Assembly (NCBI GenBank): GCA_020047755.1
Contig: JAIFNL010000144.1
Coordinates: 1 to 61,603 of the forward strand
Direction of reading: 5' to 3'
DNA from: Bacteroidota bacterium
Lineage (GTDB): Bacteria; Bacteroidota; Bacteroidia; Bacteroidales; JAIFNL01
DNA length: 61,603 nt
Under the pieces are notes generated by a model, which made no database searches, had not been told where the DNA came from, and saw nothing but the letters and a program-made list of their open reading frames with translations. Positions 1,860 to 33,365 of this stretch are shown piece by piece; positions within the stretch are counted from its first letter, which is position 1, and each line of letters opens with the position of its first letter. Position numbers and translations under genes: made by a program.

Positions 1860-1870
1860 ATAACTAAAAT

Positions 1871-3481: not shown

Positions 3482-3532
3482 TTCGTAAATTAAAAAAAGA
3501 AGCAAATTATTTCCATTCAATCCAACTTGCAA

Positions 3533-3928: not shown

Positions 3929-3958
3929 CAAACAGATTTTCTTTTTAACCAATTGAAT

Positions 3959-4921: not shown

Positions 4922-4965
4922 AATAAACAGTCCTAAAACAAGTTTTTAAAACTCAAAAAAAAACG

Positions 4966-5403: not shown

Positions 5404-5433
5404 TTCTTAACTCACAATTAACTGCCAATACTC

Positions 5434-6036: not shown

Positions 6037-6185
6037 TGCACTTTTTTAGCTCCTAAAATTTATCAATAATTCAAAATTATTTTTTATTTTTGAAAGAATT
6101 ATTTCAAAAATAATATACAAAATAAAAAAAAGTTGTATATTAGCAAAAAAAACGTTGGTATTTTATTACGAAAAATAAGAGTACT

Positions 6186-12070: not shown

Positions 12071-12922
12071 TCAAATTGGTTCAATTACTTGTTGGATAGG
12101 TATTTTAATTTTTGTTTTTTCAAAATCAATAAAAACTGTTCCTTTAATATAGAAGCCTCTTTCGTTGGTAAATACTTTTTTAAACATACTCAAACCGGCA
12201 TTAATATTCTGAATTTGAGCATTTACACTAAAATTGGTATCGTTTTTTGCTTCAATAATTAATTTATCTGTTTTTTTTGTAGAACCTAAAAGTGATTCCA
12301 TTTTTTCATTGTCGAAAATTTCAAAATTTAAGCTATCGAGCGTGTATGAAAAAGGGAATTTGTTTTCAAAGCCGAATTTGATGTCCATTTTTGTGTAACT
12401 AGGTTTTATTTCAGTTATCTTTAAGCCCTTAATTTTCAAGGATTCTTTAATTAAATCACCAGAAAGATTTTTCATAAGATCGGCTAATTTGAAATAAACT
12501 TGCGTTTTTTTATTAATTTTCAAACCCATTGGCGAAATTTTAGCCGAAACCGAAATATCGACCGGAAAACTGTCGCTTTCCATAATAAAGTCAATGGTTT
12601 TGAGTAGCTTAGAAATATTTAATTCTATTGTGTTTTGAATATCAGTAATTTCGTTTGCTTTAAGTGTAAATTCTTCTTTTACAAAGCCTTGCCCTATTTC
12701 TCGCCCTTGCAGCATAATGCTGTATTCTAAATCGCTGGCAGTAATTGACATCTTATTAGGGTTTTCTATCTGAGTAGTCATAGTGGTAAGTAGCATAGAA
12801 TCAAGTTTTTCCACAATTTCTAAATTAGAAATTCCTACTACTTTAGGGTCTTTGATACAGCCCGAGAGCCAAAAAGAAATGCTAAAAGCGAATAAGATAA
12901 ATATATACTTTTTTTTTATCAT
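12071..12922 (-). CDS. Hypothetical lipoprotein, possibly LEA_2 / Lea14-like beta-sandwich repeats
   Basis: Lipobox WLSGC. The rest is beta-rich and appears to contain two similar halves. The family call is tentative. Confidence 0.45.
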   Translation of the reverse strand: MIKKKYIFILFAFSISFWLSGCIKDPKVVGISNLEIVEKLDSMLLTTMTTQIENPNKMSITASDLEYSIMLQGREIGQGFVKEEFTLKANEITDIQNTIELNISKLLKTIDFIMESDSFPVDISVSAKISPMGLKINKKTQVYFKLADLMKNLSGDLIKESLKIKGLKITEIKPSYTKMDIKFGFENKFPFSYTLDSLNFEIFDNEKMESLLGSTKKTDKLIIEAKNDTNFSVNAQIQNINAGLSMFKKVFTNERGFYIKGTVFIDFEKTKIKIPIQQVIEPI

Positions 12923-12944: not shown

Positions 12945-13799
12945 TTAAAATTTATAATTTGTTTCAATATGCTTTTTTAAACAATCATAGCGATCGTTGG
13001 AATAAGGGTGGCTTCTCAAAAAACTTTCAATCATATTCTTTTTTCCTTCCGACTCTGCCATTTTTTTCCACAATTCCATACCTTTTCGAGAGTCATAACC
13101 AGCAGCTTGGCACAAATCTGCTCCATAAGCATCAACTTCTACTTCATTTTTTTGATTAAAAAATGGGGTAATTGTTTGCTGCAAAGCCAAACCTATGTCC
13201 CCAAATCCGCCCATGAAACTATTGCCAAGTTTTATTTTTTTCAAGAGTAAATTTATATGCCCCTTTTCATTGTGCCCTATTTCGTGCCCAATTATTGCAG
13301 CAAGGGCACTTTCGCTGTTTGCAAAATCAATAATACCAGTATTTACAAAAACATGACCGCCCAGAGTGTAAGCATTTATTTCGCTGTTTTTAACCAGATG
13401 TATTTTATATCGAATACCACTCGGATTGCGACGTGTTTTGAGCAAATCGGCTAGCATTGCTTGCAAAGCATTGTATTGTGCTCCCGAAGTAATAAACTGA
13501 TATTCAGCCGAAGATTTCATTTCGTTGTAAACATCATCGCCAAAATCGCTTTCCTCTTCTGCACTAACTTTTACGCCCGCCATGGAAATTGCAAATTTCT
13601 CAGCCTCAGTAACTACGCCGCCACTTGTATAAATGGGGTCATTGGGCAAGCAATTCAAATTTGTTTTTATGCTCGTAGGAACTTTCTCCACGGTAGTTGT
13701 TAATCTATCCTTTTTTCCTAAACCGCTAACTTGGGAGCTACTATTTTTGTACAAAAAAAAGGAAAAAATACAAAGTGTTAATAATATTTTTATTTTCAT
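12945..13799 (-). CDS. Exported M48-family zinc metallopeptidase
   Basis: Signal peptide, HEIGHNEKGH (HExxH) and a downstream acidic ligand region. Overall length fits the periplasmic M48 type. Confidence 0.75.
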   Translation of the reverse strand: MKIKILLTLCIFSFFLYKNSSSQVSGLGKKDRLTTTVEKVPTSIKTNLNCLPNDPIYTSGGVVTEAEKFAISMAGVKVSAEEESDFGDDVYNEMKSSAEYQFITSGAQYNALQAMLADLLKTRRNPSGIRYKIHLVKNSEINAYTLGGHVFVNTGIIDFANSESALAAIIGHEIGHNEKGHINLLLKKIKLGNSFMGGFGDIGLALQQTITPFFNQKNEVEVDAYGADLCQAAGYDSRKGMELWKKMAESEGKKNMIESFLRSHPYSNDRYDCLKKHIETNYKF

Positions 13800-14129
13800 A
13801 TTTTAGTTTTTATTTATAATATACTATTAAGAGTATAAATTTTTATATTTATTTTTTCAAAAAAAAAGGAGTTTTGTAAATTTATATCGAATAAGAAGAA
13901 AATAAGTTTAACTTTTTTTTACAATATTAGACTTTTTTTTGTTAAAAAAAGTTTTTTTAACAGTTTTTTTATTATTATTGTTTTTTGAAAAACATGAAAT
14001 TTTCTTATTATATTTTAACGCATTCTATCAAAAAAAATTGTATTTAAAAAATTTCGCAAATAATAATCCTCTAAATAAAAAGGAATTAGCCGAAATTAAA
14101 TTCAATAGAACTAAACAAAAATACTTATA

Positions 14130-17045
14130 ATGAGCGAGCAATTAGTTAAATTTATCATCACACTCAAGGGAAATGAAATTAATAAATTTGCATTTTCAAA
14201 AGGAAAGAGAGTTAGTATTATTTTGGGCAAAAACAAGTCGAAAGTAGATTTTGCAGTAGAATCGAATTACGTTTCGGGTACACATTTAGAACTTATTAAA
14301 GATGAGAATGATAACCTCTTTGTCAAAGATTTGGATTCTACCAATGGAACTTATGTGAACAACAAAAGAATAACTTCGGGGCAGTTAGTTTCCATAAAAA
14401 TTAATGATATTATTTCTTTTACAGAAGGCTCAGATATTCAATTACTTGTACTTCCGCCTTCGTTTGGTAGCCAAAAATCGGAAAATAATCCCACAAATAA
14501 TTTTGTAAATTCAGAAAACAATTATGCTAATAATAAAATAAAGTCTTCTGGTAATTTCTCACAAAAAACAGAAATTGTAATAGGGCGAAATGCCGATTGT
14601 GATTTTATAATTGATAATCAAATTGTTTCGCGCCGACATGCCATTATTTTTAAAGACTCTGACGGTTTGTACACTATTAAGGACAATAACTCTTCAAACG
14701 GAACATACATCAACAATTCATTACTCACAGGAAGCCGAAAAATTAGTAATTCAGACAAAATTACTATAGGAAAACAAACATTCACCTTAAGTGATTTAAT
14801 GGGCGGAAAGGCTCAGAATTTAGCCAATCAAACACCCGATAATAGCACTAGTTTAGCCCAACTTTTGAGCAACAAAAATACCTTATTAATTGGTAGAGCA
14901 CAAACTGCAGATGTTGTAATTAACGACAACTTGGTTTCGCGCCAACACACCCGAATTACCAAGGAAAACGGAAAATATTTTGTACAAGATTTAGGTTCTA
15001 CCAACGGAACTTTTTTGAACGAAAACAGAATCCAACAAAAAGTAGAGTTAAAAGTTGGTGATGAATTACGTATTGGCTTGAAAGTGTTTAGTTTAGAACA
15101 AGCTGAAAAAGCCTTGAGCGACACAACGGCTATTCGTGCAATTAACGTAACTAAAAAGTTTTCAAATGGTTATGTGGGATTAAAACCGATGAGCGTAAAC
15201 ATTCCGAGCAGAGCATTTATTGCACTCATGGGACCTTCGGGATGCGGAAAAACTACGCTCATGAACACACTCAACGGCGACAATCCGGCAACAGGCGGAA
15301 GTGTTCATATTCACGGACTTGAGCTTACCAAGAACTATTCGATGCTAAAGCAAAAAATAGGCTATGTACCTCAAGATGACATAGTTCATAGAGATTTGAC
15401 AGTAGAAAGCTCGCTTTATTATGCTGCCAAACTGCGCATGAACCCCGACACTACCGATCAAGAAATAACGCAACGCATTGACGAAGTGCTTACTAGCCTC
15501 AAAATCAACAGAACAGATATAAGAACCAAGCCCGTAGGGAAGCTTTCAGGAGGGCAACGCAAGCGTGTTTCAATTGCCGTAGAACTTTTAAACAAACCTA
15601 CTATTTTATTTCTCGATGAGCCAACCTCACCTCTCGACCCCGAAACCATTGACGGTTTTTTAACTAGTATCAAAGAGCTTACCGAATTAGAAGAAACCAC
15701 AGTAATAATGGTTACTCACAAACCTTCGGACTTAAATTATGTGGACAGAGTAATATTCTTAGGTACAGAAGGTTATCAAGCTTTTTATGGTAGCGAAAAT
15801 GATTTATACAATCATTTCGATATCAAAGACCGAAATATTATTGGCATTTATTCGTTGCTAAGTACCAAAGAAAAAGCAAACGAATGGGGAGAAAAATGGA
15901 AAATAAAAAGCCAAACAACAACACAAGAGCTAAAAGAAGAAAAAGGTTTTGCCCAAAAACCAGAAAAAGTTTCTTGGTTTTCGCAACTCTTCTGGCTCAC
16001 CAAGCGTTATGCAAATATCAAACTCAACGACAAAGGCAATATGGCATTGCTAATGTTGCAACCCATTATTATACCACTTGCACTTATCTATTTATTTGAT
16101 AAACTGCAACTTGGAGTGCTGTTTATGATGGCAATTTCCGCCATTTGGTTTGGAGTAAGCAACGCGGCAAAAGAAATTGTGAGCGAAATTCCAATTTACA
16201 AGCGCGAACGCATGTTCAACCTGAATATTACCACCTACATGCTCTCTAAAATCTTGGTTTTATCGGTCATTGCCCTCATTCAAGTAACTATTTTCTTGCA
16301 AATTGTTCAGTTACGTTTTCTAAGCGACGAAATTCACATTGTGAATATGTTTCAAGCCACTTTTTTCTTGTTTTTATTGTCTTTTTCAGCTACTTTATTA
16401 GGTTTGCTTTTGTCAGTTATTTTTGATAATGCTGAAAAAGTAATGACTTTTATTCCAATCATTCTAATACCGCAAATTATATTTTCGGGTGTTATTGCCG
16501 ATATTGATTCTAAAGACAAAGAGCTTTTTAGTTACACCATGTTTGGACGTTGGGGAACGGAAGGACTGGCGCGAATACAAAGTGATTATACTGGTTACAA
16601 GCATATTAAATCAGATACCCTTTTAATTAAAATTTCCGAAAAACAAGACACCATTCCAACAATAGACACAATAATGCCTAATGGAATGACAATTTTAAAA
16701 GATAAAATAATATCAATACCCGAATTTAAAGACAGTATTCAAAGCGAAACTCTTATAAAAAGTGTTTATAATTCTGTTCCTGAAGTAATTATATTTTCTG
16801 ATACTTTATTAATTACTAACGATGGAAAAGACGAAAATACGCAAAATGACACAATTCCTTATAAAAAAACAGGCGATGCAAAGTTTAAAGGCGCAGACCC
16901 TTTGAAAAATTTGAAATTTTATGAAAACGCTGAACTGTTAAATAAATTCGATAGTTTAGAAAAAAATATTCTGGCAATAAGTTTGATTGATTTATTGTTG
17001 TTAATTTCAATTTATGTGATTTTAAAAAGGAAAGATACAATTTAA
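14130..17045 (+). CDS. Triple-FHA ABC exporter (FHA x3, ABC ATPase, ABC-2/ABCG-type permease, fused in one polypeptide)
   Basis: FHA1 is at about nt 14208-14420 (GKN...VSGTH...DSTNGT). FHA2 is at 14568-14783 (IGRN...VSRRH...SSNGT). FHA3 is at 14880-15086 (IGRA...VSRQH...GSTNGT). ATPase motifs are Walker A GPSGCGKTT, signature LSGGQRKR, Walker B ILFLDEPTS and H-loop VTHKP. Several TM helices follow, then a final C-terminal TM. Confidence 0.9.
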   Translation: MSEQLVKFIITLKGNEINKFAFSKGKRVSIILGKNKSKVDFAVESNYVSGTHLELIKDENDNLFVKDLDSTNGTYVNNKRITSGQLVSIKINDIISFTEGSDIQLLVLPPSFGSQKSENNPTNNFVNSENNYANNKIKSSGNFSQKTEIVIGRNADCDFIIDNQIVSRRHAIIFKDSDGLYTIKDNNSSNGTYINNSLLTGSRKISNSDKITIGKQTFTLSDLMGGKAQNLANQTPDNSTSLAQLLSNKNTLLIGRAQTADVVINDNLVSRQHTRITKENGKYFVQDLGSTNGTFLNENRIQQKVELKVGDELRIGLKVFSLEQAEKALSDTTAIRAINVTKKFSNGYVGLKPMSVNIPSRAFIALMGPSGCGKTTLMNTLNGDNPATGGSVHIHGLELTKNYSMLKQKIGYVPQDDIVHRDLTVESSLYYAAKLRMNPDTTDQEITQRIDEVLTSLKINRTDIRTKPVGKLSGGQRKRVSIAVELLNKPTILFLDEPTSPLDPETIDGFLTSIKELTELEETTVIMVTHKPSDLNYVDRVIFLGTEGYQAFYGSENDLYNHFDIKDRNIIGIYSLLSTKEKANEWGEKWKIKSQTTTQELKEEKGFAQKPEKVSWFSQLFWLTKRYANIKLNDKGNMALLMLQPIIIPLALIYLFDKLQLGVLFMMAISAIWFGVSNAAKEIVSEIPIYKRERMFNLNITTYMLSKILVLSVIALIQVTIFLQIVQLRFLSDEIHIVNMFQATFFLFLLSFSATLLGLLLSVIFDNAEKVMTFIPIILIPQIIFSGVIADIDSKDKELFSYTMFGRWGTEGLARIQSDYTGYKHIKSDTLLIKISEKQDTIPTIDTIMPNGMTILKDKIISIPEFKDSIQSETLIKSVYNSVPEVIIFSDTLLITNDGKDENTQNDTIPYKKTGDAKFKGADPLKNLKFYENAELLNKFDSLEKNILAISLIDLLLLISIYVILKRKDTI

Positions 17046-17092
17046 TTTTTTAAAATAAAATAAAATAATATAAAAATATAAAAATTTGAATT

Positions 17093-17785
17093 ATGAAAAA
17101 ATGCAACAACGGACATTATTACAATCCCGAAAAAAATAGCTATTGCCCTTATTGCCCGCAACCAGAAGGGCAAAATAATATCGACAGCAACAAAACCAAG
17201 CTTCAAGATAATAAAGGAGACAAAACCGAATTATTGGGTGGAAATAGCAGTAATCCTTTGAAAACTAGTGCTTTTGAGCCGCAAAAAAACGAACATAACA
17301 AAACACAGATTTTCGATAACAACGGTAATGAAACTGAAATATTTGACAAATCGAGCAAAAAATCAAGCGATTTTGCCGAAAGCAATCAGCAAGATTGGAA
17401 CAAAACTTACATAGGTATAAGCGAAGACGAGACAGATGACGATTTTGGTGCGCAAAAAGAAGCTCCCAGAGCACAGCGCAAACTGGTTGGCTGGCTTGTT
17501 TCATTTACAATTGACCCGCTTGGCATCGATTTTAGGCTCTACGAAGGGAAAAATATGATAGGTTCGGCACCCGGAAACGAAATTACAATACTTGGCGACA
17601 AGCTCGTTTCGTCGAAACACGCCACTATTTTGTTTAGAAATGGAAAATACAGATTAAAAGACGAATTTTCGACCAACGGAACCTATTTAAACGGTTCAGA
17701 CCTTGACGATGAAGTACTTAACCTTACTGACGGCGATATTATAAAAGTAGGTTCTACTCTGCTAAAATTCCGCTCGGCGTTTTAA
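17093..17785 (+). CDS. Zinc-ribbon, disordered linker, FHA protein
   Basis: N-terminal CNNGHYYNPEKNSYCPYCP (CxxH...CxxC ribbon). The middle is low-complexity and rich in N/K/S/E. The C-terminal FHA reads IGSAPGNEITI...VSSKHATI...FSTNGTYLNG. Confidence 0.8.
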   Translation: MKKCNNGHYYNPEKNSYCPYCPQPEGQNNIDSNKTKLQDNKGDKTELLGGNSSNPLKTSAFEPQKNEHNKTQIFDNNGNETEIFDKSSKKSSDFAESNQQDWNKTYIGISEDETDDDFGAQKEAPRAQRKLVGWLVSFTIDPLGIDFRLYEGKNMIGSAPGNEITILGDKLVSSKHATILFRNGKYRLKDEFSTNGTYLNGSDLDDEVLNLTDGDIIKVGSTLLKFRSAF

Positions 17786-17862
17786 ATTTTAATTTCTTTT
17801 GGTATTTTTTCTTAAAAGATAATTAATTAAAAGATTAATTTAAAATTATAAAAATATAAGTG

Positions 17863-19494
17863 ATGAAAAAGCTAAAAATTACCTTATTTTTTATTTTAAC
17901 TGTACTTTTTGCATTTTCGCAACAAATAGGAAAAGTAAGTAAAGTAAATGTGGATAAATTTCCGAAAGTAGAATTTACATTAAATTTATACAAACCTGAT
18001 GCTAAGGAAAATAAAGATTTTGAAATTTTTGAAAACCAGCAAAAAATTCAATTTACTTTTAGCAGAACAAATGCGCCCATTGCCGATACTCAAAAGCATA
18101 TTTTGATACTTTTTGAAGACATGACTCATACATCTCATGCCCTGCAACGCGAATATTTTCAATATGTTCTGGAAAATTCACTGCCCAAGTTTGTGAATAA
18201 AGGCGATAAGGTAAATATAGCCGTTTTTGACAGAAACAGAGGAAGTGAAACTTCTTTGCGCTTTTTGTTGGAAAACTATACCGACGATGTGGAGTTGTTA
18301 AAAAATGCAGCTAACACATTTAGAAGTATTTACGATGAACATAGCAACCAAAAAAGTTCAGAACTTTACGACGCGCTAGACGATGGAATGGCTGATTTGC
18401 ATGAAAAGTTTCCCAATAAAAATACCTTCATTTTGGAACTTTCGGCAGGTTTCAATTTAAGCGCGAACAATGCTATAACGCAAGAAGGCTTAATTGCGAC
18501 CTCGCGCGAGTACAGAATACCCATTTACTCAGTGTATTACAACATTTACGACAATAGAACAGACAACGATTATGCAGAGAAATCGTTTGGATTGTTTTTT
18601 CTTTCAGACAAAAGCAGAAACGATAAAGATGCTGCAAAAGAGAAAGTTATAGAATTTATGACCAATGCTTTAAAGCGTCATTATGGATTTAACTACACTT
18701 TTAGTTACGATACAAAAGTAGAACAAGACGGAAAATTGCATACTGTTTCGATAAAGGTTGATGGACAAGCAATTGAGGAAAAATTTCAAGCACCAGCTTG
18801 CGATATTGCTTGTTTCATAAAAAAGAATACAATTTTAGTAGCTTTAATTCTAATTATTATCATTGGTTTTATTATTGGGCTCGTTCTTTTTTTGAAAAAG
18901 AAAAAAGAAAAAGAATTAGCCTTGCAAGCTGAAAAAGAAGCTCAACAAACAGAAAAACTTAGGCAAATAGAGATTCAACGCCAAAAAGACAAGGAAGAAC
19001 AAGTAAAAAAACAAGAGCTACAACAACTTGAAAATGAGCGTTTAGAGCAAAAAATGCGCGAAGAGCGTGAAGAACAGTTGCGTTTTCAACAACGTTTGGA
19101 AGCTGAAAAACTTGCAGAACAGCGTCAGCATGAACAACAACTACTTGAAAAACAACAAGAAGAACAAAACAAGCGACTCACAGAAGAAATGCGCAACAAC
19201 CGCGGAGGTTTCCCTTCGTTGAAAATTGTTTCGCATGGATTGAACAAAGATTTTGTAATAAATAAGCCTATTATTTCTTTTGGAAGAGAAAAACATTTAA
19301 ACGATTTCTTTTTGCAAGAACCCACAGTTTCGGGCAAACATTTTGAAATTCAATATTTTGGAGGTGATTATTTTATTCAAGATGTAGGAAGCACCAATGG
19401 AACAAAAATAAATGGCATGGCAGTTCGTAGGCACAAACTAAAGCACAACGACATTATTCAAGCCGGAAAAGCACAAATGATGTTTGTTTGGTAA
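17863..19494 (+). CDS. Signal peptide, vWA-like domain, TM helix, Q/E/K/R coiled coil, C-terminal FHA
   Basis: Signal peptide MKKLKITLFFILTVLFAFSQQ. The vWA-like strand/helix pattern has a degenerate MIDAS: HILILFEDMTHTS, KVNIAVFDRN, SELYDALDDGMADL, FILELSAGFN. The TM is ILVALILIIIIGFIIGLVLFL followed by KKKKEKE. About 100 aa of coiled coil follow. The FHA reads FGREKH...VSGKHFEI...GSTNGTKING. The vWA call is inference. Confidence 0.75.
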   Translation: MKKLKITLFFILTVLFAFSQQIGKVSKVNVDKFPKVEFTLNLYKPDAKENKDFEIFENQQKIQFTFSRTNAPIADTQKHILILFEDMTHTSHALQREYFQYVLENSLPKFVNKGDKVNIAVFDRNRGSETSLRFLLENYTDDVELLKNAANTFRSIYDEHSNQKSSELYDALDDGMADLHEKFPNKNTFILELSAGFNLSANNAITQEGLIATSREYRIPIYSVYYNIYDNRTDNDYAEKSFGLFFLSDKSRNDKDAAKEKVIEFMTNALKRHYGFNYTFSYDTKVEQDGKLHTVSIKVDGQAIEEKFQAPACDIACFIKKNTILVALILIIIIGFIIGLVLFLKKKKEKELALQAEKEAQQTEKLRQIEIQRQKDKEEQVKKQELQQLENERLEQKMREEREEQLRFQQRLEAEKLAEQRQHEQQLLEKQQEEQNKRLTEEMRNNRGGFPSLKIVSHGLNKDFVINKPIISFGREKHLNDFFLQEPTVSGKHFEIQYFGGDYFIQDVGSTNGTKINGMAVRRHKLKHNDIIQAGKAQMMFVW

Positions 19495-19577
19495 ATTCTA
19501 AATTCTATTATTTTAATAATACTCTAATTTTAAAATTATAAAAAAATAATACTTCTATACAATAAATATAAAACAAA

Positions 19578-21578
19578 ATGGATATATTTGATATAAAGAA
19601 AGATGTATGCAATATAACGCATGAAGGCAAAGTAAGACCTAAAAATGAAGATAATCAGGGATATACTTACACGTCTAACGGTCATATTTTTGTGGTTTGC
19701 GATGGAATGGGCGGGCATGTAGGCGGGCAAGTTGCCTCAAATATAGCCGTTGAAAGTATTATTGAGTATTTTGCCTCGGATAAAAAGCCAGATATATATG
19801 TGGCTATGTGTGAGGCTATTGAGTACGCTAATCGTAATATTTACGAGCGTTCGAGGCAAGATACTAGCTTGGAAGGTATGGGCACAACTGCGGTTTTACT
19901 AGTTATTCAAAACGAAAACTCGTACATAGCGCACGTGGGCGACAGTCGGATTTATCTGCACACCAGCGGGCAGTTGCACCGAGTTACCAAAGACCATTCG
20001 TATGTGCAAAGTTTAGTGGATAATGGCACTATTTCTGACGACGATGCCGAAAGACACCCTCGTAAAAATGAGCTAATGAGAGCATTAGGTATTAGCCCAA
20101 AAGTAAAAGTAGAAGTGGCTTCGCAGCCCATTAGAACAAAAAACGGCGATACTTTTTTGCTATGCAGTGATGGTTTGAATGGCATGGTGAACGACATGAC
20201 CATGGAAGCTACGCTAAATAAAACGCTTAGTATTCAGCAAAAAGGCGAAGAACTTTTGCAGTTTGCACTAAATGCCGGCGGAAAAGACAACATTACTTTG
20301 TCGTTGATAGAAATAAGCAAAAGTCCAAACCCAAAAACTTATTTTATATCGAAATCACCTGAACGTAAGGAAATTCCGGTAACTAATCCCGACATTAAAT
20401 ACACAAAAACACTTGGTGGTAGCGAATTTGGCGAAATAGACACGCAAAAAACCGAAAATCTTTTAAATATAAACAACCAACAACAAGAGCTACCTCTGAA
20501 AAACGAAATAGCAAAAGACACAATAAATAAAGATAACAAAAAAAAGAAAACCTTTTTTATGCTATTGGGAGGAGTAGCTTTTGTTTTATTACTTATTGTT
20601 GGACTGTATGTTACAGGAATTATAGGCTCAAAACCTTACCAGGTTCTTATTTTGAAAGAAAAAGGAAAATTTGAACTTGGAAATTTTGCCACTTTAGACG
20701 AAGCAAAAGAGGAAGCCAGAAATTATATAGAACAAAAGAAATTAAAAGGTAAATTTGAAATTTGGTACATAAAAAATAAATTTGCCAATTTAGAATTTGA
20801 AGAAGACCCAAATTCAACAGTAATTTCAACAGAATCAGGAGATAACAAAACATCTCTTACACAAAATAATAAAAAAGTTTTAATGCCCGAAGGCATTGGC
20901 TGGAAAGCTTTGTACGAAGAATATGGAGTATGTAAATGCTATATTATAGAAGTGAACGACCCAAAGTTGTTTGGTAAAAATAATAGCCTCAAAGCCAATA
21001 CTTCGTACATAATTCCGCTCGATTATTCGAGTAAAGAAGAATACAATCCCAAAAACTATCAAAAATATTTACCGGAAAAAGTGGGTTACGATAACAACGG
21101 AGATTGCTCAAAAATAGGTAAGCAATGTGGAGGCACTTCGGCAACAAACTCAACAAAAGTAACTGATAATAAGACAGAAACAACAACGGAAGAGAAAAAA
21201 GACGACAAGACCGTAACTGACGACAAAACAGATACCAAAATTGAAGAAAAAAAGGAAGAAACAAAAAAAGAATTGACTTACGAAGAAAAGAAAGCGGCTG
21301 CAAAAAAAGATTATGATGAAGCATTTACAAAATATGAAGCGGCAAAGAAGGTAACTATAACAGCAGAAGCAGAGTATAAAAAAATATCAGAAACCAATTT
21401 TCCAATTATAAAAGAAGAAAAGAAAAAAACGGAAAAAAAGCAGGATGCAGAAAAAATAGAACGATTAAACAATGAAATAAGCATAGCAAGTAAAAAGCTA
21501 AAAGATGCTCAAACTGCCGAAAAAACAGCAAAAGCAAACTTAGATAAGGCAAAAATTGAATTGGAAAAGTACAAATAA
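19578..21578 (+). CDS. Membrane-anchored PP2C-family Ser/Thr phosphatase with a large extracytoplasmic C-terminal region
   Basis: PP2C motifs NEDN, VCDGMGGHVGG, GTTAV, HVGDSRIY, LLCSDGL, GGKDNITL. The TM is FFMLLGGVAFVLLLIVGLYVTGIIG after NKKKKT. About 315 aa follow, ending in a K/E/T-rich coiled-coil tail. Confidence 0.9.
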   Translation: MDIFDIKKDVCNITHEGKVRPKNEDNQGYTYTSNGHIFVVCDGMGGHVGGQVASNIAVESIIEYFASDKKPDIYVAMCEAIEYANRNIYERSRQDTSLEGMGTTAVLLVIQNENSYIAHVGDSRIYLHTSGQLHRVTKDHSYVQSLVDNGTISDDDAERHPRKNELMRALGISPKVKVEVASQPIRTKNGDTFLLCSDGLNGMVNDMTMEATLNKTLSIQQKGEELLQFALNAGGKDNITLSLIEISKSPNPKTYFISKSPERKEIPVTNPDIKYTKTLGGSEFGEIDTQKTENLLNINNQQQELPLKNEIAKDTINKDNKKKKTFFMLLGGVAFVLLLIVGLYVTGIIGSKPYQVLILKEKGKFELGNFATLDEAKEEARNYIEQKKLKGKFEIWYIKNKFANLEFEEDPNSTVISTESGDNKTSLTQNNKKVLMPEGIGWKALYEEYGVCKCYIIEVNDPKLFGKNNSLKANTSYIIPLDYSSKEEYNPKNYQKYLPEKVGYDNNGDCSKIGKQCGGTSATNSTKVTDNKTETTTEEKKDDKTVTDDKTDTKIEEKKEETKKELTYEEKKAAAKKDYDEAFTKYEAAKKVTITAEAEYKKISETNFPIIKEEKKKTEKKQDAEKIERLNNEISIASKKLKDAQTAEKTAKANLDKAKIELEKYK

Positions 21579-21594
21579 TGCAAAATAATAAGAA

Positions 21595-22404
21595 ATGTAT
21601 CCATTTGTAAAAGAAAATTTAGAAATAAAGCGTGAATTAGGACGTGGCGGAACGGCAGCAGTTTACTTGGCTTGGGACAAGTGGGCAAAAAAGCAAGTTG
21701 CTATAAAAGCCTTATTTAAAACACGTTACGAGGATAGAATGATTCGCGAAAAATTCAAACAAGAAGCCAATTTGTATCTTTACCTCGAACACCCCAATAT
21801 AGCCGATTTGACCGATTACATTGTAACGCCCGAAACGGATTATATCGTGATGGAATACATTCAAGGCATTAATTTAGAGGAATATATACAAACCAAATCG
21901 GGACCAATTGCCGACGAAAATTTGTTCAAAATATTTACGCAAATATTGCACGGTGTAGCTTATGCTCATCATCAAAAAGTTACGCATTTAGATATAAAAC
22001 CAAGCAATATAATGGTAACTAATGACCTAATAGTGAAAATTTTAGATTTTGGAATTTCGTCCTCGAAAGATGAGAAAATAGAAAATGCCAAGCGCAGAAT
22101 GGGCACGCCCATGTACATGAGCCCCGAGCAAATAGATATGAAAAATGTAGGCAGACAAAGCGATATTTATTCGCTGGGAGTAACTCTACATCACATGGTT
22201 ACAGGTCAATTGCCTTACAAAGGCGGCTCGATAAAAGAAATTTTTCATAAAATTAAGAACGAAAAATTGCCTAAAATTAGAGATATTTATCCTCATGCAA
22301 ATATAAAATTGCAACCAATAATAGATGCTGCAACAGAGAAAAATTTGCAAAAGCGATACAAAACATGCGAAGAATTTGAGTATTTTCTTTCGCAAGCAGT
22401 TTGA
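21595..22404 (+). CDS. Soluble Hanks-type Ser/Thr protein kinase (kinase domain only, non-RD)
   Basis: LGRGGTAAVY (G-loop), VAIKAL (Lys), HLDIKPSNIMV (HLD instead of HRD), ILDFGIS (DFG), GTPMYMSPEQ. 269 aa with no TM. Confidence 0.9.
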   Translation: MYPFVKENLEIKRELGRGGTAAVYLAWDKWAKKQVAIKALFKTRYEDRMIREKFKQEANLYLYLEHPNIADLTDYIVTPETDYIVMEYIQGINLEEYIQTKSGPIADENLFKIFTQILHGVAYAHHQKVTHLDIKPSNIMVTNDLIVKILDFGISSSKDEKIENAKRRMGTPMYMSPEQIDMKNVGRQSDIYSLGVTLHHMVTGQLPYKGGSIKEIFHKIKNEKLPKIRDIYPHANIKLQPIIDAATEKNLQKRYKTCEEFEYFLSQAV

Positions 22405-22440
22405 TTGTTTTTTATAATATAAGAAAAAATTTATAAAAAT

Positions 22441-23421
22441 ATGGAGGTTAAAATAATAGGACGTGCATCGAGTTGCGATTTTGTCGTAAAAGACGAATTT
22501 GTATCGCGCGAGCATTTACAAATCATAAAATATTCCGAAACGGATTTTCGTATTATTGATATTGATTCAACTACCGGAACTTACGTAAATGGGCAAAAAA
22601 TAAAGCCAGAAATTGAAATTTCGGTAGAAAAAACAGATATTATTAAAATAGGAAATACGCTTTTGAAGTGGAATGAATTTTTCAAAAAAGAAAGTAAAAT
22701 GCCTATAAATGACATTTATGCAACAAAACCCGACGACGACAAGCCAGGCAATGCTGAGAATAACAACCGAACCACATTTCCTGAAGAGCTTTACCAAATG
22801 GTGAAAGCTTTTGCAGAAGATGGAATTTATTCAGAAACAGAAAAAGTAACATTAAAAGGCTATTGTACTTCGCATAACATTGATTATGAGAATACTATTT
22901 TACCACTAATGAACAGCGCCATTGACGAAATAAATTTAAGCAACAAACAAAAGGAACAACACCAATCAACTAATAAACAAATAATTACAAATGTAGAAAA
23001 AGAACCAAGTTCTGTTATTTTCGCTACGTTTGGACAACGTTTGGGCGCATTTGTTATTGATGCAATAATTGTTGGCATTTTGGATTTTAGTGCAATTTTA
23101 GTGATAGTATTGACTACAGGAATTGCAACTTCAGATGATGAAGTTGCTTTAAATAATGCAATTCTATTGGTAATTAATTGGTTCTATTTTGCGCTTTTTG
23201 AAAGTTCAAAAGCACAAGCTACTTTAGGAAAACAGGCAATAGGAATAAAAGTAACCAATGAAAATGAAAATAGAATTTCGTTTGCCAAAGCAAGCGGTCG
23301 TTTTTTTGGAAGAATAGTTTCAACCGTAATTCTTTTAATTGGCTATTTGATGCCATTGTGGACAGAAAAAAAGCAAGCATTACATGATATAATCTCAGGT
23401 TGTTTGGTTGTTCGAAAATAA
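22441..23421 (+). CDS. FHA, helical module, RDD-family membrane domain protein
   Basis: N-terminal FHA (IGRASSCDFVV...VSREHLQI...DSTTGTYVNG). The C-terminal ~130 aa carry 3 hydrophobic helices and RDD-type features (FGQRLGAFVIDAII ... ALHDIISGCLVV). Confidence 0.8.
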   Translation: MEVKIIGRASSCDFVVKDEFVSREHLQIIKYSETDFRIIDIDSTTGTYVNGQKIKPEIEISVEKTDIIKIGNTLLKWNEFFKKESKMPINDIYATKPDDDKPGNAENNNRTTFPEELYQMVKAFAEDGIYSETEKVTLKGYCTSHNIDYENTILPLMNSAIDEINLSNKQKEQHQSTNKQIITNVEKEPSSVIFATFGQRLGAFVIDAIIVGILDFSAILVIVLTTGIATSDDEVALNNAILLVINWFYFALFESSKAQATLGKQAIGIKVTNENENRISFAKASGRFFGRIVSTVILLIGYLMPLWTEKKQALHDIISGCLVVRK

Positions 23422-23444
23422 AAAAAGCAATTTATAATTAGCAG

Positions 23445-25016
23445 ATGATAGGAAAAGAGATAAATAATTATAAGATAGAAAGCCTCTTAGGACAAGGAGG
23501 AATGGGCAGCGTGTATAAAGTAATACACTCCGTTTTGAAGCGAAAAGCTGCCTTAAAATTACTACATTTCAACTTTTCGGAAAATCCAAAAGTGTTAGAA
23601 AGATTTAAAAATGAGGCACTTACACTCGACGACCTCAAGCATGAAGCCATTGTTCAGTTAATAGATTATGGAAAATTTGAAAACCGTCCTTTTCTTTTAC
23701 TCGAATACATTGAAGGTGTGCCACTTGACGATTATATAAAAAAAATTTCGGGTCCCATTCCTGAAGAGCGTGCCTTAGAATTGCTATTTCAAATGCTTGA
23801 AGGCATTAATTATGCTCACAAAAAAACCGTTGTGCACCGAGATATAAAGCCTTCAAATTTTATGCTTACGCCCGATGGTAAAATTAAAATTTTGGATTTT
23901 GGAATAGCTAAAATCTTGTCGGACAACAATATGAATATGACCAAAGAGGGACAAAAAATTGGTACTATTCCTTACATGAGTCCCGAACAAATTCAAGGAA
24001 AAATAATCGACACACGCAGCGATATTTACTCGCTAGGTGTAACCTTTTTTCAAATGCTTACAGGTCAAGAACCTTATGAACAATCACTTACAGAATGGGA
24101 CATTTCCAATAAAATTGTTTTTGAGCCTTTGCCCAAAGCAAATTTAATTTATCCTCATATTTCGGAATCGATGCAACATTTAATTGACAAAGCAACCGCA
24201 AAAAACAAAGAAGAGCGTTTCCAAACATGCGAGGAGTTTTTAAAAGAAGTACATGATTTATTGCCTACCAAAAAGGAAAAGCATATTTTGCCCGAAGCAA
24301 AAAAAGATTTGGTAAAAGCAAAAAAAGAATACGCCGATTTGTTTGAAGTTTTTTACGAAGATAAAAATATTTCAAACTCGGAGCGAGAATTGTTGAAGAA
24401 AAAGCAAGCAGAACTATCACTTAGTTCGCTAGAAATAAGTGAAATAGAAAGTTTTATTGTTTTAAAATATTCTAAAAAAGAAAAACAACCTATTAAGTTG
24501 GATAATACAAAAAAAATAGAGCAACTAGTTGTTAATGAAAATAATGTAAATTTCAAAAAAAGTAATGAAAACTCAATTAGAAAAAGAAAAAAAGTAATTA
24601 CCTTTGTAGCAGGTTTTATTTTTATACTTTTTATTGGAATAGTTCTTTTTTCAATTTTTTCTAAAAAAAACCAAAATATTGATTATGAAAGTGTTGATTT
24701 TAAAACTCAGTACATTGGGAAAATGGAAATAGAAGGCAGCGAGGTTTCTATACGGCTAAAAATAAACGAAGTAAAACCAGATTGGACTGTTTACTATGAT
24801 TTCTATTTGAAAGCAGAGCAAAAATTGAGCAACAAACAAGCACGTATAAACACGAAAACAAATGAGATTACTTTTTTGCTAAAAGGAGCTAATAACTCTG
24901 AAAAAGAAGTAATTAAAATATTAAATATTGCCGATATTTCAAAAAATAAAAGTGATAAAATAGTATTAACTTCTCGAAACAAAAACTGGGAACTATCGCA
25001 ATTAATTCAAAAATAA
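23445..25016 (+). CDS. Transmembrane Hanks-type Ser/Thr kinase with an extracytoplasmic C-terminal domain
   Basis: LGQGGMGSVY, AALKLL, HRDIKPSNFML, ILDFGIAK, GTIPYMSPEQ. The TM is ITFVAGFIFILFIGIVLFSIF after RKRKK. A ~115-aa C-terminal domain of unknown family follows. Confidence 0.9.
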   Translation: MIGKEINNYKIESLLGQGGMGSVYKVIHSVLKRKAALKLLHFNFSENPKVLERFKNEALTLDDLKHEAIVQLIDYGKFENRPFLLLEYIEGVPLDDYIKKISGPIPEERALELLFQMLEGINYAHKKTVVHRDIKPSNFMLTPDGKIKILDFGIAKILSDNNMNMTKEGQKIGTIPYMSPEQIQGKIIDTRSDIYSLGVTFFQMLTGQEPYEQSLTEWDISNKIVFEPLPKANLIYPHISESMQHLIDKATAKNKEERFQTCEEFLKEVHDLLPTKKEKHILPEAKKDLVKAKKEYADLFEVFYEDKNISNSERELLKKKQAELSLSSLEISEIESFIVLKYSKKEKQPIKLDNTKKIEQLVVNENNVNFKKSNENSIRKRKKVITFVAGFIFILFIGIVLFSIFSKKNQNIDYESVDFKTQYIGKMEIEGSEVSIRLKINEVKPDWTVYYDFYLKAEQKLSNKQARINTKTNEITFLLKGANNSEKEVIKILNIADISKNKSDKIVLTSRNKNWELSQLIQK

Positions 25017-25041
25017 AAGATAAACTATATACATCAAATCT

Positions 25042-26019
25042 ATGAAAATCAATATTTTACTAATTTCAGCTCTTGTGCTATTGGCTTATGCGTGTGGCGG
25101 TAATTGTGCCGAAGAAAATGCTAAATTAAAAGACCAAATAGCTGAATATGAGCAACAAGAGCAACTAACAGCCTTGGCAATGAACGATTACGATGCGCAG
25201 ATAAAAGAATACAAAACCAAGGACGACTCGCTAAAAATGTTTCGCGATTCTATTGATATTATGACAAATAAAATGCGTTCGAGTGGGAAAGCTAGTGCTG
25301 GCGATAACAAAGCAATGAATAAATACGTAAATGAAATGCGGCGTATATTAGCTGAGAATAAGAAACTTACAGCAGATTTAAGTCAATATGTAGATAGTGC
25401 CGACATTGGAGAAAATCCGGCATTAGTTGTAAAGGTTTTGGCTCAAAACTTAGAAACCAAAGAACGCGAAATAGCTGATTTACAAAAACAAATAGAAGAA
25501 CTCCAAAAAGAAGTAAAAGGCTTAAAAGTTGAATTGACTGTAATTGCCGAAGAAAAACAAAACCTAGAAACCGTAAATCAAGATCTTTCTAATAAAAATG
25601 AAGAGCTTACAGAAGAAGTTAAAGTACTGAAAATAAGCAAAATAACTAATGCAATTTTTAATAAAAACGGAAAAGATATTACAGATAATAAAGTAAAACT
25701 TTATAATTCAATCAGCACATTAGAAGTTTGTTACACATTAGAAAAAAATAAATTTGCTGAAGTTGGAAATCATAACATTTACATTTGCATAATAAAAAAT
25801 GGAACAATTTTAACCAATTCTTCGTCCAATCTTTTTAGTGCAGAAAATGGAAAACAGCTAGGCTATACTATAAAATCAAATGTAAATTACAAAGGTGAAT
25901 TAATACGAACTTGTTCAAAATGGGAAGTTGGCAATAATAAAATAGAAAAAGGATCGTATGAAATTATAATTTATGATGAAAAAGGACGAAAAATAGGTAG
26001 CGATTTATTTAGTTTATAA
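25042..26019 (+). CDS. Lipoprotein with an N-terminal coiled coil and a C-terminal beta-rich domain
   Basis: Lipobox LLAYACGG. There is a heptad-like charged region of ~170 aa. No recognised family. Confidence 0.55.
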   Translation: MKINILLISALVLLAYACGGNCAEENAKLKDQIAEYEQQEQLTALAMNDYDAQIKEYKTKDDSLKMFRDSIDIMTNKMRSSGKASAGDNKAMNKYVNEMRRILAENKKLTADLSQYVDSADIGENPALVVKVLAQNLETKEREIADLQKQIEELQKEVKGLKVELTVIAEEKQNLETVNQDLSNKNEELTEEVKVLKISKITNAIFNKNGKDITDNKVKLYNSISTLEVCYTLEKNKFAEVGNHNIYICIIKNGTILTNSSSNLFSAENGKQLGYTIKSNVNYKGELIRTCSKWEVGNNKIEKGSYEIIIYDEKGRKIGSDLFSL

Positions 26020-26102
26020 TTAAAAACCAATTAAATATGCCACCAAAATACCTTTTTACTTATAAAGAATTTACGCTAAGTTTCATCTATAAATTATAGA
26101 AA

Positions 26103-27686
26103 ATGATAGGTCGAATTATACAAAATTATGAAATATTGCGTTTAATTGGCGAAGGCGGAATGGGAAACGTATATGCAGCAAAGCATGTTCATTTAGACAA
26201 AATTGCGGCAATTAAAATATTGAAAATTGAAACAAGCAAGCACAAAGATGCTTTGGCACGCTTTGAGAAAGAAGCAAAAACACTTAATAAACTAAGACAT
26301 AAACATATAGTAGAACTTTTTGATTATGGAGTAAGCAACGAAATTCCATACATTATAATGGAATATATTGATGGAATACCTTTAGATGAATACATCAAAA
26401 CAAAATCAGGTCCTATTCCTGAGGAAAAAGCAAGTAAATATACGCTCCAAATACTTACAGCACTGGAAATTGCGCACATCAATGGCATTATTCACCGCGA
26501 CATAAAACCATCAAATTTTATCCTTACAAAGAATGATGATATTAAAATATTAGATTTTGGTATAGCCAAAATGGTTTCGGAAACAGAAACTCATCAGCTC
26601 ACAAAAATAGGTCAAGGTATTGGTACTCTGCCTTATATGAGTCCTGAGCAAATTTATATGAAAAATATAACAAATGCCATAGATATTTACGCGCTAGGTG
26701 TTTGTTTGCATCAAATGATTACTGCAAAAGAGCCTTACGATTTGGGTTTGTCGCGAAGAGAAATTGAGGATAAAATTTTAAAAGAACCTTTGCCTCGCAT
26801 AAAAGAATTTTACCCTTTTGCTAGCGATAAAATACAAGCAATTATTGATAAAGCAACAGAAAAAGAAATTCAAAATCGATACAAAAATTGCCATGAATTT
26901 GCTGAAGCGTTAAAAAATAATAAGGTAATAGAAACGGAATTAATCGAAGATTTTTCAAAAACATTGAAATTTGAAGAAAAACCGAAAGAAATAATTGAAA
27001 ATAAAATAGATACAGTAATTTCTATTGAAAAAGAAATACCAAAAATAAATGAAAAAAAATCGAATTCATTTTTATATGTTGGTATATTTGTTGCAATGAT
27101 TTTAATTATCTTCGGTATTTTCATTTTTGCAAAAGAAGAATACCGCGTGAAAATAGAAAAAAATAATACGGTATTTTTTGAAAAAAAATATCCTGATAGT
27201 ACTGAAGCTATAAAAGTAGGAAAACTTGAACTAGAGAAATGTGAAAATGAAAGCGAATTGACAGTAAAAAGCAAAGATGAACTTATTTTTAGGCTAGTGA
27301 AAACAGAAAAAATAGAAGGAAATGAAGCTGAAACTATAGAACAACCAGAGCAAAAGCCTGAAAATAATATAAATACGGTAGCTACAACAACTACCGAGAA
27401 AAAAAGTTCGGTTCAAATATTTACGCCAACTTCATTTCAAGATAACTTTAGAATTTTGGCAAATAAAAACTACGATTATGCTTCGAGGCAGGCGCATTTA
27501 GAGAAATTTTTGAAAGAATTTACTTCCGATGCAGCCGTTTTGGTTTATCAAAATGGGGAAAAAGTTGAAACAAAGGGTATTAAAGAATATCTACAAGCAA
27601 TCATGTTTAATGGAAAACAAGTAAAAGTTTCGGTAACACAAAAAAGCGGTTCGCTTGTTCGAGATATAGAAGTTGTTGAAAATTAA
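26103..27686 (+). CDS. Transmembrane Hanks-type Ser/Thr kinase with an extracytoplasmic C-terminal domain
   Basis: IGEGGMGNVY, AAIKIL, HRDIKPSNFIL, ILDFGIAK, GTLPYMSPEQ. The TM is FLYVGIFVAMILIIFGIFIFA. A ~180-aa C-terminal region of unknown family follows. It is a close paralogue of 23445-25016. Confidence 0.9.
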   Translation: MIGRIIQNYEILRLIGEGGMGNVYAAKHVHLDKIAAIKILKIETSKHKDALARFEKEAKTLNKLRHKHIVELFDYGVSNEIPYIIMEYIDGIPLDEYIKTKSGPIPEEKASKYTLQILTALEIAHINGIIHRDIKPSNFILTKNDDIKILDFGIAKMVSETETHQLTKIGQGIGTLPYMSPEQIYMKNITNAIDIYALGVCLHQMITAKEPYDLGLSRREIEDKILKEPLPRIKEFYPFASDKIQAIIDKATEKEIQNRYKNCHEFAEALKNNKVIETELIEDFSKTLKFEEKPKEIIENKIDTVISIEKEIPKINEKKSNSFLYVGIFVAMILIIFGIFIFAKEEYRVKIEKNNTVFFEKKYPDSTEAIKVGKLELEKCENESELTVKSKDELIFRLVKTEKIEGNEAETIEQPEQKPENNINTVATTTTEKKSSVQIFTPTSFQDNFRILANKNYDYASRQAHLEKFLKEFTSDAAVLVYQNGEKVETKGIKEYLQAIMFNGKQVKVSVTQKSGSLVRDIEVVEN

Positions 27687-27748
27687 TCATTTAATGTTTA
27701 TATTCACAAAATAAATAGATTTAGAATTTTAAAATAACAAATAAATAT

Positions 27749-28348
27749 ATGAAAGAGCTTTTACTTATACTCTTGTTATTAAATTGCGGGATTACTTATT
27801 CTCAACATAAATTTAATTTAAAATCGGAAGATAATTCTAGCTCTTCGGGAACGATAGAACTGAGCGAAGAAAGATACGAAGCATTCAAAAAACGCTCACT
27901 TGAGAAGGTTACTGACTTAGGAAATTACATCATTTCGTTGACAGACAAATCAATTCCCGCAGAACAAGGCAAAATAGTTGTTAATCTGGCTGTTAGCTTA
28001 TTTCAAGATGAAGAGAAAGTTGTAGAAATTTCGTCAAAAACAAGTACTCAAGTGCAACAATTGAAAGTAAGGGCATACTTCAATAAACTGAGAGTACTCA
28101 AATACAGCAAGGTAGATATTCAATGGTACGATATTCAATACGTTTCAAATTTACGCTTGGGTAGCGATGGCAGTTATTACGGAGTTATTACAGTTTTTCA
28201 AAAGTTTACTGGTTTTAGTGGCGATAAAATTGCCTATACCGATATAACTCAAAAAAATATTGAAATCAAAGTAATGCAAGTAGCAACAGTAAGAGGTTTG
28301 GACTGGGAAGTATTACTAGGAAACATTTCAGTAGTTGAAACTAAGTAG
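27749..28348 (+). CDS. Hypothetical exported protein
   Basis: Signal peptide MKELLLILLLLNCGITYSQ. No recognised family. Lies inside the co-directional array. Confidence 0.5.
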   Translation: MKELLLILLLLNCGITYSQHKFNLKSEDNSSSSGTIELSEERYEAFKKRSLEKVTDLGNYIISLTDKSIPAEQGKIVVNLAVSLFQDEEKVVEISSKTSTQVQQLKVRAYFNKLRVLKYSKVDIQWYDIQYVSNLRLGSDGSYYGVITVFQKFTGFSGDKIAYTDITQKNIEIKVMQVATVRGLDWEVLLGNISVVETK

Positions 28349-28380
28349 CTAAATAGAATAAAAATTAAATATATTTTTTT

Positions 28381-29304: not shown

Positions 29305-29350
29305 TCAATTTTAGAAAAAACTGAGTGTAAAAATTTTAATTTGAGAAATC

Positions 29351-33165: not shown

Positions 33166-33365
33166 GCAAATAACAACTTAAATATCAAAACTTTAACACA
33201 CCAAAATAACCAATTTAAAACCCCTTACGTCTTTAAACGTAGGCAAACTTTAAGTGTTTGAACTGTTTTTTAACGCCTAATAAGCTTCTACTTTTGTGTC
33301 GTAATTTAATTCCTTCCTTTTTGATGGATTAAAATACTTTTTTTTGATAACAAAAACAGAAAAAC

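Follow-up and report, generated by a model that had tools for sequence, protein, structure and literature searches.

The 61,603-nucleotide contig JAIFNL010000144.1 of a Bacteroidota bacterium (assembly GCA_020047755.1; the whole stretch is called the window below) carries three adjacent genes on its plus strand, at 17863–22404, that encode a protein with a vWA domain and an FHA domain (the vWA-FHA protein), a membrane-anchored PP2C phosphatase and a short Ser/Thr kinase. We judge it on balance probable that this triad forms the central block of an operon conserved in Bacteroidota, the products of which make up a phosphothreonine (pThr) signalling hub spanning the cell envelope. Established within this proposal are the identity of the domains, the topology, the integrity of the motifs and the conservation of the gene set. 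The three genes are not chance open reading frames (ORFs), because they are long, give strong domain E-values and have conserved orthologues. They belong to a run of consecutive ORFs on one strand (14130–31336), and the 16–83 bp that separate neighbouring ORFs suggest a single operon. To place the locus, we compared gene order over 13 independent Bacteroidota loci (L numbers designate individual loci), in which identity to the window vWA-FHA protein goes down to ~25%; counts out of 90 refer to 90 sampled members of the vWA-FHA family.

The ORF of the vWA-FHA protein is listed at 17860–19494 from a GTG. The ATG at 17863, which is the next codon, is the better start since homologues likewise begin MKK, and it gives a bitopic protein of 543 residues (17863–19494, plus strand). 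A first-pass annotation, made from the letters of the sequence, had described a signal peptide, a domain of ~300 residues, a transmembrane (TM) helix, a Q/E/K/R stretch and an FHA domain in this protein, and all of these are found by Pfam, TM prediction and AlphaFold2 (AF2) modelling. The hydrophobic N-terminus is signal-peptide-like (MKKLKITLFFILTVLFAFSQ; residues 1–20, 17863–17922) and leads into an ectodomain of ~300 residues. The TM helix (residues 324–342, 18832–18888) is followed by KKKKEK and by a cytoplasmic helical stalk (residues 344–452, 18889–19215), in which Q, E, K and R make up 72 of the 109 residues and which AF2 models as two long helices (324–384 and 392–449). The FHA domain (19273–19467; Pfam 5e-17) has an intact pThr-binding signature, with the motifs GR, SGKH (SxxH) and TNGT, and its model superposes on the FHA domains of GarA and OdhI with a root-mean-square deviation of ~1.1 Å in Foldseek.

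These features are shared by the family. A signal-peptide-like N-terminus is present in 85 of the 90 members, a TM helix in all 90 and a basic patch after the helix in 87. The earlier placement of the vWA domain on the periplasmic side agrees with this combination of signal peptide, TM helix and positive-inside pattern, seen in the window protein and in 85–90 of the 90 relatives. The vWA domain is accordingly predicted to lie outside the cytoplasmic membrane and the FHA domain in the cytoplasm, with one TM helix and the long helical stalk between them. Just before the TM helix there is a CxxxC pair (CDIAC, residues 313–317, 18799–18813), invariant in close relatives and not conserved family-wide, which could be a membrane-proximal disulfide or a metal site.

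An exhaustive profile search gives 353 clusters for the family at 50% identity, nearly all of 500–540 residues, and overturned the impression that the family is rare, which had come from a word-indexed search with 8 relatives. All named sources are Bacteroidota, Bacteroidia, Bacteroidales or Paludibacter. Database entries call the members "FHA domain-containing protein" or "hypothetical protein", and current annotation overlooks their extracytoplasmic vWA. In the literature we found no description of a protein that has its vWA domain on the outer and its FHA domain on the inner side of the membrane. The view of the first-pass annotation that a periplasmic, MIDAS-degenerate vWA would be an unusual variant holds insofar as a TM helix joins it to an FHA domain and not to a kinase; that a vWA with a role in Ser/Thr signalling is extracytoplasmic has a precedent in PpkA.

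The ectodomain is, as modelled, a vWA fold, an assignment settled by predicted structure together with family-level evidence. Direct sequence comparisons were uninformative. Pfam searched with the ectodomain (residues 1–323) at E ≤ 10 gave no vWA match and noise only (MmeI_hel, Spiralin), phmmer against PDB sequences returned only chance matches to utrophin, and hhalign of an 8-sequence alignment, which is too shallow, against an approximate sequence of the integrin αM I-domain gave no meaningful alignment (probability 0.3). The structure check of the vWA-like domain proposed at first sight was run with two AF2 models and Foldseek, and bears the proposal out. The ectodomain model, built with 8 relatives (pLDDT, or predicted local distance difference test, 82; predicted template modelling score, pTM, 0.81), has a β-α-β core between β-strands, and every Foldseek match to it is a vWA domain with probability 1.0, among them ITIH1 (1e-9), integrin β headpieces, TRAP, TFIIH p44, Rpn10, CLCA1 and vWF-A1. 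The full-length model, built with 90 relatives (pLDDT 90, mostly >93 in the ectodomain), returns the same vWA matches and, in addition, ArnB of the ArnA-ArnB complex (8s05_A, 1e-8, 360 aligned columns). For both models the top non-FHA matches in the PDB are all vWA domains, with probability 1.0. At the level of the family, Pfam VWA (PF00092) is matched directly by 8 of the 90 members, with a best value of 2e-8; the profile of the family picks up canonical multi-vWA proteins at ~1e-23; and the vWA domain of α2δ-1 aligns in register with the ectodomain (E = 0.04).

In the full-length model the vWA core occupies residues ~78–274 (18094–18684) and is flanked by β-strands on its N-terminal (about residues 23–71) and C-terminal (about residues 276–310) sides. 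These strands probably form a β-sandwich around the inserted vWA, an arrangement made likely by the best structural matches, which have a vWA inserted in a β-sandwich. The family profile also reaches two giant surface proteins, P0146 and P0156 (1688 and 2453 residues), with 3–4 canonical vWA domains and PKD, RCC1 and BACON domains; judging from sequence, these may stand nearest to the ectodomain among canonical vWA proteins.

The metal-ion-dependent adhesion site (MIDAS) is degenerate, as the first-pass annotation had noticed from EDMTHTS after strand β1 and SAG at the position of TDG. The MIDAS motif, DxSxS...T...D, is typical of the vWA superfamily and not obligatory. In the window protein strand β1 is followed by E86-D-M-T-H-T-S-H-A-L-Q96, a loop longer than the canonical D-x-S-x-S, and LSAG aligns on the FTDG of the α2δ-1 vWA. 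A canonical MIDAS, defined as DxSxS combined with (S/T)DG, is found in none of the 90 relatives, so the degeneracy is an old family trait rather than an oddity of this gene. The family instead has a signature of its own at the MIDAS positions, hLhL(W/F)E(D/N)M...Q, (S/T)(D/E)LY.A and (S/T)AG.N. The most conserved polar residues (E86, D/N87, S/T167, D/E168 and S/T195) sit at MIDAS-equivalent positions, and the MIDAS face is probably still the functional surface.

The second gene of the triad (19578–21578, plus strand) encodes a phosphatase recognised by Pfam (PP2C, 1e-17) and by the NCBIfam model NF033484 (Stp1/IreP), which it passes with 264 bits against a cutoff of 230. Its catalytic motifs are complete (RxxNED, DGMGG, GTT, GDSR, SDGL, DN). 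A TM helix at residues 327–345, with an extracytoplasmic tail of ~320 residues beyond it, confirms the earlier reading of a TM-anchored PP2C. The protein therefore has the appearance of an active phosphatase of the Stp1/PstP type, predicted to sit in the same membrane as the vWA-FHA protein. Peptidoglycan-binding modules of the SPOR or LysM kind were considered for its tail and rejected, as Pfam at E ≤ 1 gives them no support.

The third gene (21595–22404, plus strand; Pkinase 5e-54) begins exactly 16 bp after the PP2C stop and encodes 269 residues consisting of a kinase domain only, both as first described. This predicted soluble Hanks-type Ser/Thr kinase carries the motifs HLDIKPSN, DFG and SPE. 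It is of the non-RD (HLD) type in 9 of 9 loci (the window, L003, L004, L006–L008 and L010–L012), whereas every long kinase has HRD, and it forms a distinct conserved orthologue group whose regulation probably differs from that of the long kinases. Two long kinases follow in the window. Both are RD kinases with a Pkinase match of 2e-53 and a TM helix: the first (23445–25016, plus strand; HRD) has its helix at residues 384–402 and an extracytoplasmic tail of ~120 residues, and the second (26103–27686, plus strand) has its helix at residues 323–341 and a tail of ~185 residues. By NCBIfam models, the kinases are closest to the Stk1/PknB kinase domains.

This likeness, together with a PP2C that passes the Stp1/IreP (PstP-type) model, would be expected if the locus were a Bacteroidota counterpart of the actinobacterial fhaA-fhaB-pstP-(rodA-pbpA)-pknA-pknB cluster, that is, a regulator of growth and division whose FHA proteins act as scaffolds for cell-wall synthesis. 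The order of the window genes is similar, with FHA proteins preceding the membrane PP2C and at least two kinases coming after it; in the M. tuberculosis locus, too, FHA proteins stand before the membrane PP2C and kinases after. A murB gene lies nearby in the window and is adjacent in L004. We nevertheless consider this explanation improbable, and equally its corollary that the ABC, M48 and LEA_2 genes described below would be secondary passengers. Neither rodA/ftsW nor pbp genes occur in any of the 13 loci, Pfam finds no PASTA domains in the kinases, the FHA proteins score far below the cutoffs of the FhaA and FhaB models, and the actinobacterial cluster has no equivalent of the vWA ectodomain.

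The conserved unit is larger than the triad. Directly 5' of the vWA-FHA gene, in 13 of 13 loci, stands a gene for a zinc-ribbon (ZnR) and FHA protein. PP2C is adjacent in 10 of 12 loci and within the cluster in 12 of 12, the short kinase (~270 residues) is present in 9 of 11, and the three genes are contiguous in 7 of 11. The proposal that the triad is the core of the array thus stands insofar as its genes are usually syntenic; what does not stand is a core on its own. The triad travelling without the rest of the array was looked for in the 13 loci and never found, and a triad without other FHA genes occurs in 0 of the loci compared. Since the conserved unit is larger and the triad is never alone, it is a sub-block rather than a self-sufficient core.

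Among the other members, the ZnR-FHA gene of the window (17093–17785, plus strand) encodes a zinc ribbon (C-x2-GH...CPYC), a disordered linker with Thr repeats and an FHA domain (1e-14), an architecture like that of ArnA and FraH. The zinc ribbon is conserved, and the linker holds 1–5 repeats of (D/N)KTx(I/L/V)F(D/G) in most loci. The gene before it (14130–17045, plus strand) encodes a 971-residue half-transporter of the ABC-2 type that, like Rv1747, carries its FHA domains, three in number, at the N-terminus (Pfam FHA ×3, 1e-55; ABC_tran; ABC2_membrane), and orthologues of this FHA-ABC-2 exporter are found in 8 of 13 loci. Following the short kinase is an FHA-RDD membrane protein (22441–23421, plus strand; FHA 8e-18, RDD 5e-24), in a slot that in most loci holds a membrane protein with an FHA domain fused to another domain; FHA-tagged membrane proteins of the RDD, DUF805 and DUF4190 types recur, as do one to three long kinases. 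Between the two long kinases of the window lies a gene for a coiled-coil lipoprotein (25042–26019, plus strand; lipobox LAYAC), with an orthologue (66% identical) in L004 only.

On the opposite strand, divergent from the array, are genes for a secreted M48 zinc metallopeptidase (12945–13799, minus strand; Pfam Peptidase_M48 7e-22) and a WHy-like LEA_2 lipoprotein (12071–12922, minus strand; Pfam LEA_2 2e-12; lipobox WLSGC). M48 peptidases occur in 6 loci, with orthologues in L001, L008, L009, L011 and L012; the protein is unfused in the window, L001, L011 and L012, and in two distant relatives it has an N-terminal FHA domain of its own (L008, 14686–15939; L009, 12795–14162). This fusion suggests that the protease is likewise recruited through pThr. 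The LEA_2 protein is found in 5 loci, and its orthologues adjoin the M48 gene in L008, L009, L011 and L012. As both genes recur across related loci, the M48 and LEA_2 genes of the window belong to the system. In the divergent intergenic region (13800–14129), the sole match to TAnnTTTG, the Bacteroidota −7 motif, is at 14123 on the minus strand, from which we draw no conclusion. In L011, the most divergent locus, genes for MlaE, an MlaF-like ABC ATPase and MlaD of outer-membrane lipid transport (5522–8050) stand immediately 5' of the module, which fits with a role in the envelope.

The second RD kinase is, going by gene order, the conserved 3' end of the array; in L004, the closest relative, the next gene after its orthologue is murB. 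Three secreted proteins of 199, 307 and 661 residues with no family match are encoded further on in the direction of the array (27749–31336, plus strand). They were considered as members and rejected, since they have no relatives in the other loci and murB follows the last kinase in L004. A HisKA_3 histidine kinase, a LuxR-type response regulator and an alginate-export-like porin come next (31579–34634, plus strand), followed by pstSCAB, apparently outside the array. Two conflict- or defence-like genes without any evident connection to the array lie a few kb 5' of it, one for a caspase-like Peptidase_C14 protein (2387–3481, plus strand) and one for a protein of 1596 residues that combines three TIR domains with a long WD40 array (6186–10976, plus strand; PADLOC TIR/ThsB-like matches). 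The rest of the 61.6-kb window is housekeeping (pstSCAB, murB, uvrA, secDF).

The first-pass annotation had referred to a recurring ternary module of a vWA+FHA protein, a PP2C and a Ser/Thr kinase, predicted to act in conflict or stress signalling. This description conflates the MoxR-vWA-VMAP systems (PMC7159879) with the TerY-P triad (PMC11090510), and the locus fits neither. In the former, an AAA+ MoxR ATPase and a third component (VMAP, iSTAND or FtsH) stand beside the vWA gene (PMC7159879; Kaur et al., 2020); this assignment was rejected, as no MoxR/AAA+ or VMAP gene is found in the array or in the 13 loci. The TerY-P triad, which is probably the module meant, consists of a TerY-like vWA, a PP2C and a kinase with a C-terminal zinc ribbon or OB fold (PMC11090510), and is attributed to Anantharaman 2012 and Gao 2020 in the passages of PMC11090510 that cite them. 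The statement that such modules had not been characterised experimentally is outdated for related ones, since TerY-P-like modules, ArnA/ArnB, PpkA/PppA/Fha1 and DRA0331-0334 have been studied.

It is highly improbable, in our estimate, that the triad is a TerY-P-like mobile stress or anti-phage switch, with a metal-sensing vWA controlling the kinase-phosphatase pair, that happens to lie among unrelated genes. The vWA-FHA protein matches no PADLOC family at E ≤ 0.01, the PP2C gives only a weak match to PDC-M21C, and the kinases match only generic kinase models. PADLOC-DB 2.0 includes models of TerY-P. The vWA is extracytoplasmic with a canonical MIDAS in 0 of 90 relatives, the 269-residue kinase has neither a zinc-ribbon nor an OB extension, and the phosphatase belongs to the housekeeping Stp1/PstP type. 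What speaks for such a switch is that the same three domain types stand side by side, that the TerY-P triad is recognised as a module that recurs, with phage defence as an activity of TerY-P-like modules (PMC11090510), and that the TIR-WD40 and caspase-like proteins lie a few kb upstream and restriction-modification (R-M) genes flank L008. Together with envelope proteins, however, the gene set is retained down to ~25% identity, often in a housekeeping context, and this deep conservation and frequent context fit vertical inheritance better than a mobile island.

A further alternative arises from L007, where two TssR-family genes, an ABC ATPase and an FtsX-like permease (34–5438) are located directly 5' of the module; TssR is a component of the Bacteroidota type VI secretion system (T6SS), and the ABC_tran and FtsX pair resembles TagT/TagS. 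The module could then be a pathway like TagQRST-PpkA-PppA-Fha1, whose vWA senses envelope damage and which switches on a secretion or contractile machine encoded elsewhere, for example a Bacteroidota T6SS-iii. We regard this as distinctly improbable. Analogous parts are indeed present, namely an extracytoplasmic vWA, PP2C, kinase, FHA proteins, ABC transporter and lipoproteins (PMC13584744, PMC3224232), but only L007 of the 13 loci has T6SS-related genes beside the module, the 61.6-kb window has no T6SS gene, and the fusion partner of the vWA is an FHA domain, not a kinase. The recurrent partners, furthermore, are the ABC-2 exporter, M48 and LEA_2 rather than Tss proteins.

In the envelope-spanning pThr hub that we favour, the membrane kinases, the short kinase or both would phosphorylate threonines, most plausibly in the linker repeats of the ZnR-FHA protein and in the kinases' own loops or juxtamembrane segments. 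The FHA domains of the vWA adaptor, of the ABC exporter and of the other FHA-tagged membrane proteins would dock on these pThr sites, and the docking would assemble and activate a membrane complex, comparable to the clustering of Rv1747 by PknF. The PP2C would take this complex apart and reset the system. The vWA ectodomain would serve as a protein-binding module, metal-independent or non-canonically metal-dependent, which links the hub with a partner in the periplasm or the outer membrane and may thereby report or position an envelope event. In physiological terms, the hub would likely govern export and proteolysis in the cell envelope. The mechanism draws on three characterised systems, Rv1747/PknF, ArnA/ArnB and PpkA.

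Several points weigh against it. We infer all of its specific contacts, that is, the phospho-acceptor sites, the FHA partners, the vWA ligand and the transported substrate. The stalk of the vWA-FHA protein has only 3 Thr/Ser among its 109 residues and, with these nearly absent, is probably not itself a phospho-target. The DKTxIF repeats are scarce in some ZnR-FHA orthologues, with one weak match in L001 and none in L007. The extracytoplasmic tails of the PP2C and of the kinases match no known sensor domain (Pfam, E ≤ 1). Genomic contexts are mixed, with housekeeping genes around the module in the window, L009 and L012, R-M genes in L008 and TssR genes in L007. Finally, the acidic and hydroxyl residues kept on the MIDAS face make non-canonical cation binding conceivable.

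A more far-reaching form of the proposal, which we hold to be possible and rather doubtful, is a Bacteroidota-wide 'FHA-tag' system, so far undescribed, in which a single pThr-rich scaffold, the linker of the ZnR-FHA protein with its DKTxIF repeats, would cluster FHA-bearing membrane effectors multivalently and so provide a switchable form of envelope maintenance. With the same reservation, the RD membrane kinases and the dedicated non-RD kinase would be its writers and the membrane PP2C its eraser, and its effectors might comprise the ABC-2 exporter, the M48 protease, the RDD, DUF805 and DUF4190 proteins and the vWA receptor. Just as tentatively, the MIDAS-less periplasmic vWA might be what physically connects the system with the outer membrane or with an exported substrate.

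Hanks-type Ser/Thr signalling has been little studied in Bacteroidota, a phylum that is dominant in the gut and in many environmental communities. The analysis defines a conserved, uncharacterised Ser/Thr signalling operon, specific to Bacteroidota and rich in FHA domains, as a tractable unit in this understudied phylum, and yields predictions on FHA-pThr pairings, on the ligand of the vWA and on a clustering switch of an Rv1747-like exporter. The locus should not be filed as a conflict module of the TerY-P or MoxR type. To a specialist, the system will appear coherent rather than startling.

Compared with known systems, the ectodomain finds its best structural matches in the integrin β I-like domain, which is placed in a hybrid domain, and in ITIH1 (PDB 3vi3, 6fpy). 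Those proteins keep a functional MIDAS (and an adjacent site, ADMIDAS), and the resemblance is one of fold only, at 8–12% identity. With TerY-P the locus shares the adjacency of vWA, PP2C and Ser/Thr kinase genes; it differs in having a conserved multi-FHA envelope operon around the module and a vWA fused to a TM helix and an FHA domain. TerY-P-like modules are anti-phage according to the passage of PMC11090510 that cites Gao 2020. The DRA0331-DRA0334 operon of Deinococcus radiodurans, with a vWA protein, a TM kinase, an FHA protein and an FHA-PP2C, has a proposed role in the DNA-damage response (bioRxiv 10.64898/2026.01.23.701218). It is similar to the window array in being a single operon with a vWA, a Ser/Thr kinase, a FraH-like FHA protein and a PP2C, and in fusing FHA domains to signalling components. 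There, however, the FHA domain is on the phosphatase and the vWA on a separate protein, and ABC, M48 and LEA_2 genes are absent.

The PpkA/PppA/Fha1/TagQRST pathway likewise couples an extracytoplasmic vWA across the membrane to Ser/Thr signalling, with a PP2C antagonist and an FHA reader, and has an ABC transporter and lipoproteins alongside. PpkA itself is arranged as kinase, TM helix and periplasmic vWA, and its extracellular vWA has been proposed as a signal sensor (PMC3224232). In the window operon, by contrast, the vWA is on the FHA protein and not on the kinase, and the tails of the window kinases match no vWA. FHA proteins are also many more in the window operon, and in place of a LolCDE-like TagTS pair it has an FHA-bearing ABC-2 exporter.

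ArnA (zinc finger and FHA) and ArnB (vWA, β-sandwich and helical bundle) of Sulfolobus acidocaldarius form a phospho-dependent complex (PMC6509490; PDB 8s05). In both cases a ZnR/ZnF-FHA protein is encoded alongside a vWA protein in a kinase/phosphatase network, and the two genes are adjacent here in 13 of 13 loci. Furthermore, the ArnB chain is among the best structural matches, over nearly its entire length (8s05_A, E = 1e-8, 360 columns). ArnB is a cytoplasmic protein with an intact MIDAS, phosphorylated on its C-terminal four-helix bundle, whereas the window vWA is secreted, TM-anchored and MIDAS-degenerate, and brings an FHA domain of its own. The phosphatase is PP2A in that archaeal system and PP2C in this one from Bacteroidota.

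Rv1747 of M. tuberculosis is an FHA-FHA-ABC exporter regulated by the co-encoded kinase PknF (PMC3138270, PMC8339232), in which phosphorylation of threonines in the linker makes the exporter associate and cluster by way of FHA domains (PMC8339232). The 971-residue protein of the window runs likewise from N-terminal FHA domains through a nucleotide-binding domain to an ABC-2 membrane domain and is co-encoded with Hanks kinases. It has three FHA domains against two in Rv1747, and the two proteins come from unrelated phyla. By analogy with Rv1747, pThr/FHA multivalency is a plausible principle for the assembly of the Bacteroidota system.

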